Assembly (NCBI RefSeq): GCF_024298765.1
Contig: NZ_CP101210.1
Length of the DNA stretch: 64,000 bases
DNA from: Escherichia coli
GTDB taxonomy: Bacteria; Pseudomonadota; Gammaproteobacteria; Enterobacterales; Enterobacteriaceae
Direction: 5' to 3' (one strand)
Positions 21,001 through 33,000 of this stretch are shown here, in pieces. Made by a program: the position numbers. How positions within the stretch are numbered: the first letter of the stretch is position 1; each line of letters starts with the position of its first letter.

Positions 21001-24000
21001 TCTTAATTTGTCTGACTTTACAGGCTACACTGTACGGGGTTCGCCCTAGTTTCTCTGCCAGCCAGAAAAGGTGTTTACCAATTTCATCGTCCGGTACATC
21101 CTCCAGAACATCTCGCAATAAACTCTCGTCTGCCTCATTCCATGCCACACCAGCATTTGGGAAACGAGGATCGATCTCTCTTTCCTTCTTCTCCTTCTTA
21201 CTTTGCTCTTTTCGGGATGATACAGATACGACAGAACGTTCTTTTACCGCTGTAATTGCCATAACTGCATTGAGCAGAGATCTGCGCTCCACATCGTTCA
21301 GCATTTTTCCTTCACAGATCAAATCATTCAGGATGTCAATGACTAGATTCAGACTTTCTTCTGTTAGCTTCATATTTCAGACCTTGAAGTATGTAGATAA
21401 TCAGCACAATTACTAATGTGATAAATATCAGAAGATAATTTACAGGTAAACCGGAAAATACATCTGAAGAATAAAGGCCTCAGCTTAACGTTTCAGCCAG
21501 TTTGTGAGCTGATTGAGGTACGGCGATGACATTAACGGGAATTACTCCCCTATAGCTCTGAGCTTATTTTTCACCCTGGCAACATATGGTGGCTACTGCG
21601 CATGGTTTTGGAGTAGATATCTTACTACTCGTAGAATTGTGCTTACTGGTCAGGCCAGCGCACAGGCATTCCGTGCAATCAATAGAACACTGGTTTTTTA
21701 GTCTTCCGTTACCCATCAGGATGTTAGTGCAGATTCCGGTGTATTCGATCAGTTGTTCGGCGAATCAGCGATCGATCACGATGCGATTTCGTATGTTAGG
21801 GATGCTGGTATGATTACTCGCTGAAAAATAATGTGAAAAGGCAGTTTTTCTTTAGACATTTAGCTCATTCATGCTGTTGTTTTACGTTTTGCTGTCGTGT
21901 GCAGGATTATCTTTTCGTTACGGGACGATTCATTCCGTTTTAATCAGGAGCTATTGGCGTTGCTCATTGGTGGGATGCCGTAAAGTTTTACCGCGGCGAT
22001 TAATGATGTGAAGTCAATCCAAATCAACGGAGATCTCTCATCATGAATCAACCAATACACAATGATTACTGGTTATCCCGTTTTGAAAGTATTCTCAACA
22101 GTGCCCTGGTGCAACACCGTGCCGTCTCGTTAATCCGGGTGGATTTACGTTTCCCTGAGCATATGCCTGTCACCATCATGGATCCCGATCCGGATTCAGC
22201 GGTGATTTCTCGTTTTTTCGAATCCCTGAAAGCCAAAATTCAGGCTTACCAGCGGAAAAAACGACGTACCAACAAGCGTGTGCGTGCAACCACCCTGCAT
22301 TATTTCTGGTGTCGAGAGTTTGGCAAGGAAAAAGGCAGGAAACATTATCACGTGATATTACTGCTCAACAAAGATACCTGGTGCTCGCCAGGGGATTTCA
22401 CCGTTCCTTCTTCGCTGGCGACGCTGATCCAACTGGCATGGTGTAGCGCTCTGCATCTTGAGCCCTGGCAGGGTAATGGACTGGTTCATTTTTCCAGGCG
22501 GACGCCTTTCCGTAAACCGGCATCATCTGATGCTCGCCCTTCTTCCGATGATACGCCTTTGTCGGGTGGATGTTCTGAAACCAGGAAGGCTTCAGACAAA
22601 AAGCCGGGTGAAGCCGCTGTTCTCTGGATCAAGCGTGGTGATGTGGAAGCGATGCAGAAAGCCATGGAGAGAGCCCGTTATCTCGTGAAGTATGAGACGA
22701 AGCAGCATGACGGTTCTGGTCAACGTAATTATGGTTGCAGCCGTGGAGCGGGGCGTCTACTGGATGGCAGGTGAACCCTGTAAAACGGCATCCGGTGCCA
22801 GAGTATATGTCACAGTAAGGTCGTTGGCTGACGCCCTTAGCTCGTTTTCTGAAAAAGTTTTTCTGAAGTAATGTGGATTTGCCCCTATATTTCCAGACAT
22901 CTGTTATCACTTAACCCATTACAAGCCCGCTGCCGCAGATATTCCCGTGGCGAGCGATAACCCAGCGCACTATGCGGATGCCATTCGTTATAATGCTCGA
23001 ACGCCTCTGCAAGGTTCTTTGCTGCCGTTAACCCGTCTGGTTTGGGCATGATACTGATGTAGTCACGCTTTATCGTTTTCACGAAGCTCTCTGCGATTCC
23101 GTTACTCTCCGGACTCCGCACCGCCGTGTTCTTCGGTTCAAGTCCCAACATCCGGGCGAACTGGCGTGTTTCATTAGCCCGGTAGCATGAACCATTATCC
23201 GTCAGCCACTCCACTGGAGACGACGGAAGATCGTTGCCGAAGCGGCGTTCCACCGCTCCCAGCATGACGTCCTGTACTGTTTCACTGTTGAAGCCGCCGG
23301 TAGTGACCGCCCAGTGCAGTGCCTCACGATCACAGCAGTCCAGCGCGAACGTGACACGCAGTCTCTCTCCGTTATCACAGCAGAACTCGAACCCGTCAGA
23401 GCACCATCGCTGATTGCTTTCTTTCACGGCCACTCTGCCTGTATGTGCCCGTTTCGATGGCGGTACAGCAGGTTTTCGCTCAAGCAACAGCGCATTCTGG
23501 CGCATGATCCGGTAAACACGTTTGGCATTGATCGCAGGCATACCATCAAGTTCGGCCTGTCTGCGAAGCAGCACCCATACCCGACGATAACCATATGTGG
23601 GCAGCTCTCCGATAACATGGTGTATACGGAGAAGCACATCCGTATCATCAGTGTGACGGCTGCGGCGACCATCTTTCCAGTCATCGGTTCGTCTGAGAAT
23701 GACGTGCAACTGCGCACGCGACACCCGGAGACAACGGCTGACTAAGCTTACTCCCCATCCCCGGGCAATAAGGGCGCGTGCGCTATCCACTTTTTTGCAC
23801 GCCCATATTCAACGGCTTCTTTAAGGAGTTCATTTTCCATCGTTTTTTTGCCGAGCAGGCGCTGGAGTTCTTTAATCTGCTTCATGGCAGCAGCAAGTTC
23901 AGAGGCAGGAACGACCTGTTCTCCTGCGGCCACAGCAGTAAGACTTCCCTCCTGGTATTGCTTGCGCCAGAGAAATAACTGGCTGGCTGCCACACCGTGT

Positions 24001-30000: not shown

Positions 30001-33000
30001 ATTACCGTTTTAGATCTGATTATGAGCGAAAGCATTAATTCGCTCACAGAGCTTAAAACATCATTAACTTTCAGGAGTCATCAACATGCCTAAATCTTAC
30101 ACACCAAACTGGTTTTTTACCGCTTTACTTGACAATCACATCAATCAAATGATGGCACGCTATTCCTGCCTGCGGGCCTTACGGATGGATTTCTTCTACA
30201 GGAAGGATACGCCTGATTTCTTACAACCTGATCATCGTTGGCTTGAATTACAACTGCGTATGCTGCTGGAGCAGGTTGAACAGTTTGAAAATATGGTTGG
30301 CTTCTTCTGGGTGATTGAATGGACGGTTGATCATGGTTTTCATGCGCATGTGGTCTTCTGGCTCGATCGTCAGAGGGTTAAAAAAATATATCCCTTTGCG
30401 GAGCGGATTACGGAATGCTGGCGGTCTATTACGCATAACAGCGGTTCGGCACACCGCTGTACATATCAGCCGCATTATACATACAACATCAACATTCCTG
30501 TGCGCCACAACGATCCTGAAAGCATCGATAATATTCGCGGTGCCCTGCATTATCTGGCAAAAGAAGAGCAAAAAGACGGGCTGTGTGCCTACGGCTGCAA
30601 TGAAGTTCCTGAACGTCCTGCTGCAGGGCGTCCTCGTAAGCCTCACTTCTGAAGCTTAAATCCTGAGCTTCCTGTCCTGGAAACATTCCGTCGGTAAAAC
30701 CTTACCGCCTTGCTTAATGATGTGAACTGAAGTCAACGGAGATCATTCACTCTGAACCACATCCGGTGTTCTGTCCCTTGTCGGTGACCTGATCTTCCCG
30801 TTCTGCCCCGGTTCTTCACTTATTCCATCAACCCCATCCGCAAACCATAACACGTCAGCTTATTCACGGGCAGGACGCATTGTGGGCTGCGCATAACGGA
30901 GCATATCTTATGAATGCTATCCCTTATTTCGACTATAGCCTGGCCCCCTTCTGGCCATCTTATCAGAACAAAATCATCGGCGTTCTCAACCGTGTGTTGC
31001 GCGAGCAGTCCTGCTCCCGAATACGGCGGATCCTGCTTCGTCTGCCGGGGGAACATGGCAACATCTTCAGCGACAGAAAAACCTGGTTCGGTATGGCCTT
31101 TATCGAAACCGTCAGTGCGCTGATGAATGCAACACCCGGACGTGACCTCTGCTGGCTCCTGACACGTCATCCTGAAAAACCGGAATACCACGTGGTGCTG
31201 TGCGTCAGACAGGAGTATTTCGACGGCCCTGAACTGGATCGGCTGATTCTGGATGCCTGGAGCAACGTACTGGGCTTCGCATCACCGGGTGAAGCAGCAC
31301 CGTACCAGAAGCAGATCACCCGGGATGTGGTGCTGGACAGTTGTTCACCGGACTGCGAAGAGAGACTCAAAGAGCTGATATGGGCGTTCAGTGATTTCGC
31401 CCGCGATCGTCGTGGTGTGCGCGATCCGGAAGCCCGTTACCTCGCCGGTAATCCCTGGTATCCCGTAGCAGGCCAGCTCTGAAAGCTCAGCTCAGCAGAT
31501 TCACCCGCATTTGCCCAACATTCATAAATCTCACAGAGGACATTCTGACCATGTTGACCTCAATGACAGGTCACGACAGCGTATTGCTGCGTGCCGACGA
31601 TCCCCTGATCGACATGAACTACATCACCAGCTTCACTGGTATGACCGACAAATGGTTTTACAAGCTGATCAGTGAAGGCCATTTCCCTAAACCCATCAAA
31701 CTGGGGCGCAGCAGCCGCTGGTACAAAAGTGAAGTGGAGCAGTGGATGCAGCATCGAATCGAGGCATCACGAGGGGCAGCAGCATGAAACGTGTTGTAAT
31801 GCCGGTACGCTGGCAATGTGCAAAATACCAGCGTTGGTATTGTGGAAATCAGCCCTGTCCCTGGTGCTGGCGACATTTACGTTCATCTTCTTGCAGACAT
31901 TCTCCAGTCAGCCAGCAGGTTGTAGCTCTTCCTGACTGATTCGTCATTCCATTCTTATTGATTATAACTGGCATTACACCGGTGCTGGCGTGCTTTCCTG
32001 CGTGTCTGCACTGGCTTAACAAAATTCAACAGGGTTTGAAAAGGAACATTTCGTGCAAATAACCAAAGCCTTAATTTCAGAGCCGGGAGACATCCGGCGT
32101 TTTGTTCAGCAGGCGGTGGACCACTGGCCAAATCTGTTGGCATTTCACTTCACGCTCTATTCGGCAGAAGGAAACATCAACGGGCAACAGATTCATGCAT
32201 TCTGTACTTCCTTTTACCGACAGGTGCACGAACGTATTACTGAGCGTAATCACACGGCCAGCCCATCCTCGCCGGTGGTATTACGCTGGTTGCGGGAACA
32301 ACATGGAGGAGCAACAATACGATGCCTGTTGCTGTTCAGCCAGGAGCTTTTCTGCCATCCGCGAGCCAGTGTGACAGTTGATGAAGAATGTTCACAACTG
32401 GTGGATTTACTGCAACAGACCTGGTCGGTGATAAGTGCTGGCGGACAATGCCGGGTGGAAAGATGTTTTCAGGTCGTCCGGGGTGATACATCTGGCCAGT
32501 ATGTTGCGTTAAAAACAGTCGCATTGTCTCTGGGGTTACCGGTTGTGATCGCCATTACCCATCGTCCGGTACAGCGCTGTATATTGATTACAGCTCAGTG
32601 AATCAGCGCAGTTGTGCAGTCAACGAGGTTTTCTGGCTTTTCGTCGGTCATTCAGCACCATTAGCCGGGTCTCTGCCTCTTTCTGTTCCTGTGGAGTCAC
32701 TTCCCCGCACGGCTGCCCCTTCAGGTCATAACGGGCGCCGCCAGCCATTAACGCACGGTAATAGCGCGGAGACTGCACATAAGACGCTACTGCCGCGCGT
32801 AATGCACCTGCACCAAACGCCAGTTCTCTGATGGCGATATCCTGTATCAGGTCGTCAGTTATCCCCACTTTAAGCGGTTTTGGTTTTTCCCGGTTGAATA
32901 ACTCAGGCCAGAGTTCCACAAGACGATTTATACGCTTACGGTTTTTGCGCTGGCGTTTTGTCATATGTCGCCATGGTGTTTGATTCCTCACCCGAAGAAG

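Follow-up and report, generated by a model that had tools for sequence, protein, structure and literature searches.

Diverged YagK/YfjJ-type genes, with predicted Rep-type HUH members, at backbone-cargo junctions of an Escherichia coli selC-side island

A 64,000-nucleotide stretch of the Escherichia coli genome (the window; NCBI RefSeq assembly GCF_024298765.1, contig NZ_CP101210.1) contains five open reading frames (ORFs), A to E, starting at positions 22043, 30086, 30910, 32053 and 59172, which a first-pass annotation had described as paralogs of the YagK/YfjJ family gathered within 40 kb. All five are present, all on the plus strand, with a total span of 37.6 kb. They form part of the conserved backbone, centred on alpA, that CP4/P4-like, tRNA-associated islands have in Enterobacterales. 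We consider it rather probable that they come from one Rep-type HUH fold, and that A and B would nick the excised island for rolling-circle replication. The family, known as YagK/YfjJ or 'inovirus Gp2', is related to the replication initiators of filamentous phages. Three diverged lineages represent it here (A, B and D/E), and C is probably a fourth.

YfjJ and YagK are long-standing members of the y-ome, with relatives in most E. coli genomes, in virulence, iron-uptake and anti-phage islands. Because obvious transfer genes are absent, the replication and movement of such islands are poorly understood. The present analysis turns the label 'phage-like hypothetical' into a specific hypothesis that mutagenesis can test: a putative Rep-type HUH nickase, UCP030791 as its dead derivative, and a linkage with AlpA at the junction. 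The genes also constitute practical markers for delimiting accreted island modules.

Rep-type HUH signatures among the five genes

Copy A is the only one of the five to pass the gathering threshold (25.8 bits) of PF11726, the YagK_YfjJ_C family formerly named Inovirus_Gp2 (E=1.8e-36, 126 bits). It also matches PF23343 REP_ORF2-G2P (E=4.4e-9) and three PHROG replication-initiation families (E=1.8e-6). Copy B falls just short of the cut-offs of both Pfam families (PF11726 23.8 bits, PF23343 24.8 bits, about 1e-5 each); in precomputed data, one cluster 95% identical to B carries PF11726.16 and two other clusters carry no such assignment. None of the five ORFs has an NCBIfam family, and a six-frame hidden Markov model (HMM) scan of the window (797 segments) revealed no sixth copy.

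The first-pass annotation had assigned to all copies a shared Hxh[IV]hhhL core, which is the HUH motif. This holds for A (HYHVILLL) and B (HAHVVFWL), and fails for C (EYHVVLCV), D (IRCLLLFS) and E (IRCLLLLS). In A and B the upstream glutamate and the YxxK tyrosine motif are likewise intact (Y213 and K216 in A; E78, Y156 and K159 in B). The columns invariant over A, B and the K-12 proteins YfjJ and YagK, to each of which A is 35% identical, comprise R, D, W, E, H-x-H, W-x-S and Y-x-x-K. The R/D/W/E/HxH/YxxK columns stay invariant or nearly so when 28 further proteins are added, in a 32-sequence alignment covering Escherichia, Salmonella, Klebsiella, Citrobacter, Serratia, Cronobacter, Yersinia, Pantoea and Edwardsiella. 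An HUH motif that precedes the tyrosine is the Rep arrangement, unlike that of classical Mob relaxases, and we take the invariant glutamate 8 residues upstream of the HUH motif to resemble the third metal ligand of the Rep protein of adeno-associated virus (AAV). A and B are thus predicted to be Rep-class HUH proteins and nickases, and are the only two of the five that are plausibly catalytic.

Structure prediction is consistent with this assignment. The AlphaFold model of B (pLDDT 72, pTM 0.73) has the order alpha-beta-alpha-beta-beta-alpha-beta-alpha-beta, and B alone yields a modelled five-stranded antiparallel HUH sheet resembling an RNA-recognition motif. A Foldseek search of the PDB with this model places NS1/Rep nuclease domains on top with weak E-values: the HUH domains of parvovirus NS1, AAV Rep, SIRV1 ORF119 and Helitrons are 12-18% identical to it, at E-values no better than 9e-3. 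Among viral models, the best match is 'Inovirus Gp2' (E=2.5e-6), followed by more replication proteins. The YagK/YfjJ profile finds nothing among PDB sequences below E=0.5. The replication-initiator-like fold that the first-pass annotation proposed to look for is thus predicted for B, whose model is of the Rep HUH type. Unlike proteins of the NS1 or AAV Rep type, the window proteins carry no fused helicase domain. With the phage rolling-circle initiators matched by A (PF23343, PHROGs) they have in common the HUH-then-Tyr order, although they are about half the size of the matched profiles (265-501 positions), have no structural or assembly genes nearby, and have no origin found beside them.

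Two variations were noted among these proteins. Copy A contains an insertion of about 36 residues, of low complexity and rich in Ser, Pro, Asp and Lys (22520-22640, residues ~160-200), without counterpart in K-12 YfjJ or YagK; the NCTC10444 allele of A is equally 243 aa long. In a distant island (locus L016, 4134-4769), a B-type protein has R-A-H in place of H-A-H and keeps the tyrosine in YLAK, so that partial loss of the putative metal site appears to happen in the 'live' B-type lineage too.

In copy C, the glutamate is replaced by Thr and the tyrosine by Asp/Phe. Its match to PF11726 is below threshold (E=0.29, 11.5 bits), and its 62 relatives come exclusively from E. coli, none with a Pfam family. 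Alignment of the C family with YagK/YfjJ by hhalign gives 88% (E=3e-6) and 63% (E=7e-5), colinear across 167 columns; HMM cross-matches are marginal (0.014-0.027 in a 356-sequence set), and hhalign finds no relation between C and the D family (4%). An AlphaFold model of C, built on a shallow E. coli-only alignment, was unusable (pLDDT 38.7), and its B-like order of helices and strands was given no weight.

Copies D and E had no Pfam match in the copy of the database searched, which lacks the PF27752 model. Precomputed annotations carry PF27752 (UCP030791, 'putative phage-derived protein') on all 120 listed homologs of D and on distant ones, and by these assignments D and E belong to that family. 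The family is small, with 55 clusters among 1.84 billion representatives, and 6 of 24 diverse members weakly match PF11726, no other family recurring meaningfully. Its hhalign match to YagK/YfjJ rises from 92.8% (E=4e-7) with 4 sequences to 97.2% (E=4.3e-11) with 32, and is colinear across about 150 columns. The D-family HMM matches 113 of 120 YagK/YfjJ proteins (best 1.3e-11), and its best non-self match among the six-frame segments of the window is A (E=1.8e-5). The hhalign alignments set the R-x-L of the D family, like the E-Y-H of C, exactly upon the H-x-H columns, and in the D family the tyrosine column coincides with a position that is not conserved. Near-invariant residues particular to the D family are H24, P26 and R78. 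We infer from these profile comparisons that UCP030791/PF27752 is a remote YagK/YfjJ derivative in which the HUH motif and the conserved tyrosine are gone; its probable status as a dead HUH derivative is a modest new point. A 1,258-aa database match to the N-terminus of D proved to be a low-complexity repeat artefact.

The proposal that the five are paralogs of one family is thus sustained by profiles for A, B and D/E, with the qualifications that the lineages are unequal and that C is a probable relative. The copies had also been called otherwise diverged: pairwise BLASTP indeed returns noise for every pair except D and E, which are 80% identical at the amino-acid level. The D-FinO segment (32053-33459) is duplicated at 59143-60603 with 86% nucleotide identity over 1,468 bp, and the copies are not recent near-identical duplicates. 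E has a 1-bp deletion near codon 10, and RefSeq labels it a frameshifted pseudogene; the 170/171-aa E-like form is common among database relatives.

Ratios of non-synonymous to synonymous substitution rates (dN/dS, Nei-Gojobori) were computed by comparing the window genes with two other E. coli alleles, and are indicative only, given the few pairs. They are 0-0.13 for B, 0.11-0.25 for C, 0.06-0.14 for alpA and 0.33 for A. With D and E below 1 as well, all five genes seem to be under some constraint, strongest in B, C and alpA.

Backbone-cargo junctions across enterobacterial islands

Eleven other contexts were read: the K-12 islands CP4-57 and CP4-6, those of NCTC10444, AVS0453 and O104:H4, three distant D-type loci (29-34% identity to D, three locus types), and islands of Edwardsiella, Serratia and Pantoea. 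In all 11, a YagK/YfjJ-type or D-type gene stands at or near the end of a stretch of conserved backbone, past which variable cargo lies, and AlpA heads this stretch in 10, the exception being K-12 CP4-6, where no alpA is annotated. The general layout of the backbone is int, alpA, small genes, HUH gene and cargo, followed by a module of GTPase, DUF932, antirestriction, RadC and toxin/antitoxin genes. The first-pass suggestion that the genes mark module boundaries is, as a description, borne out by these positions.

The K-12 islands provide the nearest comparison. CP4-57 reads intA-yfjH-alpA-yfjI-yfjJ and continues with the AbpAB defence genes, so that YfjJ, like the window genes, is found downstream of alpA at the cargo edge; in CP4-6, yagK lies near intF. 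K-12 differs in having one copy per island, against five diverged relatives in the window, of which C, D and E fall outside the PF11726 criteria. The Edwardsiella island comprises AlpA, DUF3987, YagK_YfjJ and a GTPase and, further on, DUF932 and Antirestrict. Those of Serratia and Pantoea read smpB, an integrase, AlpA and UCP007319 and, further on, YagK_YfjJ, followed by defence-like genes in Serratia or other variable genes in Pantoea.

In the distant D-type loci, the D relative keeps company with AlpA and with an HUH gene of the B type (its assignment to the B type being confirmed at 99.7-99.9%). Locus L009 has the GTPase module, AlpA, B-type HUH, two small genes and UCP030791, then a reverse transcriptase and AAA_15; a second locus has B-type HUH, AlpA, two Zn-ribbon genes, UCP030791, DUF2913 and, further on, an integrase; L016 has AlpA, B-type HUH and, after other genes, DUF4240 and UCP030791, then a methylase, SNF2 and an MmeI-like gene. 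A triad of intact HUH gene, AlpA and predicted HUH-less paralog is thus conserved across diverged islands, a further modest new point.

Within E. coli, the edges of the block that contains B, C, alpA and D, at about 29223 and 32653, are sharp and constant in differing surroundings (by blastn, the match begins at 29258 in locus L005, the NCTC10444 island, and extends over 29223-32653 in locus L007). In NCTC10444 the block has A and an hns fragment on its left and FinO-hns-fec on its right; in AVS0453 it lies between cut/dsdCXA on the left and contact-dependent inhibition (CDI) genes on the right; in O104:H4 a C fragment and alpA alone are kept, between iha and microcin H47 genes. As the same block occurs beside different cargo, no copy is tied to one cargo block, contrary to the association of each copy with distinct cargo that had been envisaged. 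The copies mark backbone-cargo junctions yet travel with no particular cargo.

The position directly downstream of the YagK/YfjJ- or D-type gene is often occupied by an anti-phage system, such as the reverse transcriptase and AAA_15 of L009 (8354-12573), the methylase, SNF2 and MmeI-like genes of L016 (7924-14537), UvrD, OLD/AAA_15 and TIR in L018 (7178-11512), and AbpAB in K-12 (6352-8001 of L002). The backbone-cargo junction looks like a hotspot for defence cargo.

Such a density of one family in one island had been called unusual. DNA matches over 5,426 complete E. coli genomes speak against this: depending on the type, 29-70% of genomes carry a match, with several places per genome. A-like sequences occur in 3,794 genomes (up to 9 places per genome, 3 in strain 104), D-like in 3,195 (up to 7; 5 in strain 104), C-like in 2,833 (up to 6; 3 in strain 104) and B-like in 1,585 (up to 5; 1 in strain 104). 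Of the 12 places in strain 104, 5 are in the window and 7 outside. The 3-kb B-C-alpA-D(-FinO) block is found at 80% coverage or more in about 1,000 genomes. These genes already bear the annotation inovirus Gp2 or YagK/YfjJ, and they are common in the backbone of E. coli islands. The ireA-IS2-Gp2 arrangement was described earlier in uropathogenic E. coli (UPEC) of ST127 (PMC9769692), and Gp2-family and ProQ/FinO proteins are listed for the selC, pheU and pheV islands of Shiga toxin-producing E. coli (STEC), with 'function still unknown' (PMC6174562). The first observation was correct but over-interpreted.

A related organization exists beyond Enterobacterales. The core proposed for the Pseudomonas tmRNA islands I23, I44 and I55 consists of intY, alpA, RadC, YqaJ and an inovirus Gp2-like protein (PNAS 2025, PMC12595487). 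In these islands too the Gp2-like gene adjoins alpA, the cargo is variable and often defensive, and transfer genes are absent; they differ in genus and integration site, in having alpA/Gp2 at the integrase-distal end, and in that no D-type paralog is reported (PMC12595487).

Proposed rolling-circle replication of the excised island and its alternatives

At least three backbone-to-cargo junctions are combined in the mosaic of the selC-side island: A/IS2-ireA, B-C-alpA-D/FinO-hns-fec and pgt/E-FinO' (FinO' being the broken copy). The split into B, C and D types is an old diversification within the module, which comes on top of the mosaicism, and the two together would account for the five copies.

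In the mechanism that we propose, AlpA-driven excision would give a circular island, on which A- or B-type proteins, with their glutamate, HUH motif and YxxK in Rep order, would nick a specific site. The nickase would become covalently attached through its tyrosine, and rolling-circle replication would be primed with a host helicase. The excised island might thereby be stabilised or amplified against loss, or copies or single-stranded DNA (ssDNA) might be supplied for transfer. C, D and E would not nick. The D type, which keeps its place beside a B-type gene and AlpA even at about 30% identity, is most probably not debris but a DNA-binding partner or regulator without catalytic activity. The role in island maintenance raised by the first-pass annotation is plausible in view of the Rep-type HUH nicking activity predicted for these two copies, A and B. 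We put forward only tentatively, as a rather doubtful extension, that an intact B-type nickase, AlpA and a dead D-type paralog form a three-part module, in which the paralog would give origin recognition or control and which would produce rolling-circle DNA or ssDNA after excision. If true, this would offer 'non-mobile' pathogenicity and defence islands of E. coli a route for persistence and spread without recognisable transfer genes.

Several results weigh against rolling-circle replication of the excised island by A and B. Scans for repeats and inverted repeats (21300-22900 and 29000-34000) show no nick site, origin-like hairpin or iterons near the copies; only short, unremarkable pairs were seen, and a rolling-circle origin is thus not apparent there. 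No integrase is encoded in the window or in the 16 kb past it in strain 104, and because the window lacks one the island is probably immobile and fixed in place. The homology of C with YagK/YfjJ is itself only probable. Constraint is weakest in D (and E), with dN/dS of 0.31-0.57 on few pairs. Decay has reached E and both neighbouring FinO copies, the latter being broken in some genomes. Finally, literature searches found no functional or biochemical study of YfjJ/YagK, inovirus Gp2/PF11726 or UCP030791/PF27752/PF23343, and YfjJ and YagK are still classed as uncharacterised (PMC11551758).

Rep-type relaxases exist (MobT-like), and A- and B-type proteins could instead be relaxases of this kind, nicking an oriT on the excised island for ssDNA transfer by a co-resident plasmid or integrative and conjugative element (ICE), and not replication initiators. 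Genes typical of plasmid leading regions or of a stealth type accompany the backbone (antirestriction, DUF932, RadC/JAB, H-NS paralog, ProQ/FinO), the 176-aa neighbour of A has a weak NikA-like match, and a related island contains a TraG fragment. The HUH-then-Tyr order is nevertheless that of Rep and not of classical Mob proteins, the proteins are single-domain (188-243 aa) and devoid of a coupling-protein interaction region, and repeat scans found no oriT-like repeat; moreover, the Gp2-bearing Pseudomonas islands were shown to be moved by jumbo-phage transduction, not conjugation (PMC12595487). We judge this explanation unlikely.

We hold it to be similarly improbable that the copies are decaying, functionless relics of phage or satellite replication modules, their density reflecting repeated accretion and shuffling mediated by insertion sequences (IS). 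The frameshift in E, the FinO-like neighbours broken in some genomes, the catalytic residues missing from C, D and E, a dN/dS of up to 0.57 in D, the frame-hybrid D-family sequences that exist in databases, and the abundance of IS elements throughout an island devoid of integrase are all in its favour. They are countered by the dN/dS values of 0-0.25 for B, C and alpA, by the catalytic columns invariant across 32 diverse A/B-type proteins, by the near-invariant residues that the D family has of its own, and by the position of that family beside AlpA and a B-type gene, held at about 30% identity.

That D and E, and perhaps C, are transcription or excision regulators binding att or alpA-operon DNA, the whole family being regulatory and not cleaving, is consistent with the loss of HUH and Tyr under a retained fold-level profile match, with the location of D directly downstream of alpA in the same orientation, and with the double role of parvovirus Rep/NS1 HUH domains as origin-binding domains (PDB match descriptions), but is very unlikely, as it leaves the strict retention of Glu/HUH/YxxK in the A and B types unexplained.

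Layout of the selC-side island

The mosaic selC-side island that makes up the window is ~100% identical to strain 104: over the segment 29500-33500, strain 104 (NZ_CP029164.1) and several isolates of avian and human origin match at 100% identity, and gene content was read from the RefSeq annotation of the identical region of that strain. Features are given in Table 1. From 10774 rightwards come the distal backbone, two orphan genes, copy A, IS2, ireA, and IS256 and IS3 remnants; then B, C, alpA, D, the convergent ProQ/FinO gene, the H-NS paralog, a dGTPase fragment, hlyE and the fec operon; and finally more IS elements, the pgt operon, copy E with its broken ProQ/FinO gene, and LacI and phosphotransferase system (PTS) genes.

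Table 1. Features of the selC-side island (window coordinates)
Feature	Position	Strand	Remarks
selC tRNA 3'-end remnant, att-type repeat	10774..10803	-	blastn with K-12 selC, 34 bp at 88% identity
Distal CP4-type backbone: DUF4942, CbtA/CbeA, DUF987, RadC/JAB, antirestriction, DUF932, DUF905, helix-turn-helix (HTH), GTPase (rightwards)	10939..18355	-	RefSeq
Orphan gene, 407 aa	18456-19679	+	Between GTPase module and copy A
Orphan gene, 176 aa	20843-21373	-	Between GTPase module and copy A; weak NikA-like match, E=0.011
Copy A, YagK/YfjJ ('inovirus Gp2 family'), 243 aa	22043-22774	+	PF11726
ALIL pseudoknot RF01497	28018-28134		117.6 bits; in frameshifted IS3-family remnant, between ireA and copy B
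Conserved recombination block: ~860-bp AT-rich non-coding leader, then B, C, alpA, D	29223..32653	+	blastn
Copy B, divergent YagK/YfjJ-type putative HUH protein, 188 aa	30086-30652	+	HAH, E78, Y156-x-x-K159 intact
Copy C, E. coli-restricted orphan, 190 aa	30910-31482	+	Probable remote YagK/YfjJ relative
AlpA-family excisionase/regulator, 78 aa	31551-31787	+	PF05930 E=2e-10; PHROG excisionase families
Copy D, UCP030791 (PF27752), 182 aa	32053-32601	+	Putative remote YagK/YfjJ derivative
ProQ/FinO-domain protein, 159 aa	32620-33099	-	PF04352 E=2.4e-24; NCBIfam FinO/ProQ partial matches
H-NS paralog, both H-NS domains	33999-34433		Adjoins ProQ/FinO gene
Copy E, second D-type gene	59143..59687	+	171-aa ORF from 59172 to 59687
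Second ProQ/FinO gene, frameshifted into two ORF pieces	59705..60216	-	RefSeq pseudogene

The selC 3' remnant marks the distal boundary of the island, beside yicL; the RefSeq annotation of strain 104 and a comparison with K-12 place the window next to yicL and nlpA. No further selC att repeat that might delimit tandem islands, and no tRNA gene, was found in the window. The GTPase/DUF932/antirestriction/RadC/CbeA-CbtA distal module typical of CP4/P4-like islands is present, and the same module also occurs in the NCTC10444 island and, beside the alpA/HUH genes, in the distant loci L009 and L017. Of the association of integrase and AlpA that characterizes the same backbone, AlpA and the selC att remnant are present and the integrase is absent, the sole recombinase being a small pseudogene fragment (36272-36544). 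The CP4/P4-like backbone is therefore incomplete and mosaic here, and the window itself is an ordinary, decayed example of such an island. The 407-aa orphan has no family in Pfam, NCBIfam or PHROGs. An Rfam scan returned nothing except the IS3 frameshift pseudoknot, and a scan for promoters and terminators gave a signal at or below shuffle expectation.

The neighbours reported by the first-pass annotation were recovered as described: alpA is situated between C and D, D being co-oriented and directly downstream, and the ProQ/FinO gene abuts D and converges on it, with stop codons 18 bp apart. At the second locus, a piece of the broken ProQ/FinO gene (59705-60007; PF04352 E=6.4e-16) adjoins E.

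The non-coding leader of the block (29223-30085) travels with B-C-alpA-D among unrelated cargo, and its length is considerable for a promoter region; the only elements seen in it were a small hairpin (29475-29506) and a direct repeat of 12 nt (29654, 29934). A GC hairpin followed by a T-run, resembling a terminator, lies at 32082-32098, inside the first 16 codons of D and just past alpA, and the 1-bp deletion that frameshifts E sits in the equivalent hairpin near 59172. Because AlpA proteins can function as antiterminators, the hairpin at the start of D might be regulatory.

An hns fragment lies between A and B in NCTC10444 (L005, 12485-12583), a hint that A once had a FinO-hns segment of its own after it, so that two backbones would have been joined. 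Between the ProQ/FinO gene and the H-NS paralog of the window, about 900 bp are non-coding (33100-33999), without Rfam match, and the first 360 bp recur in the 86%-identity duplicate (33100-33459 corresponding to 60240-60603). This spacer is a candidate for a promoter or 5' untranslated region of the FinO-like gene, or for an RNA partner.

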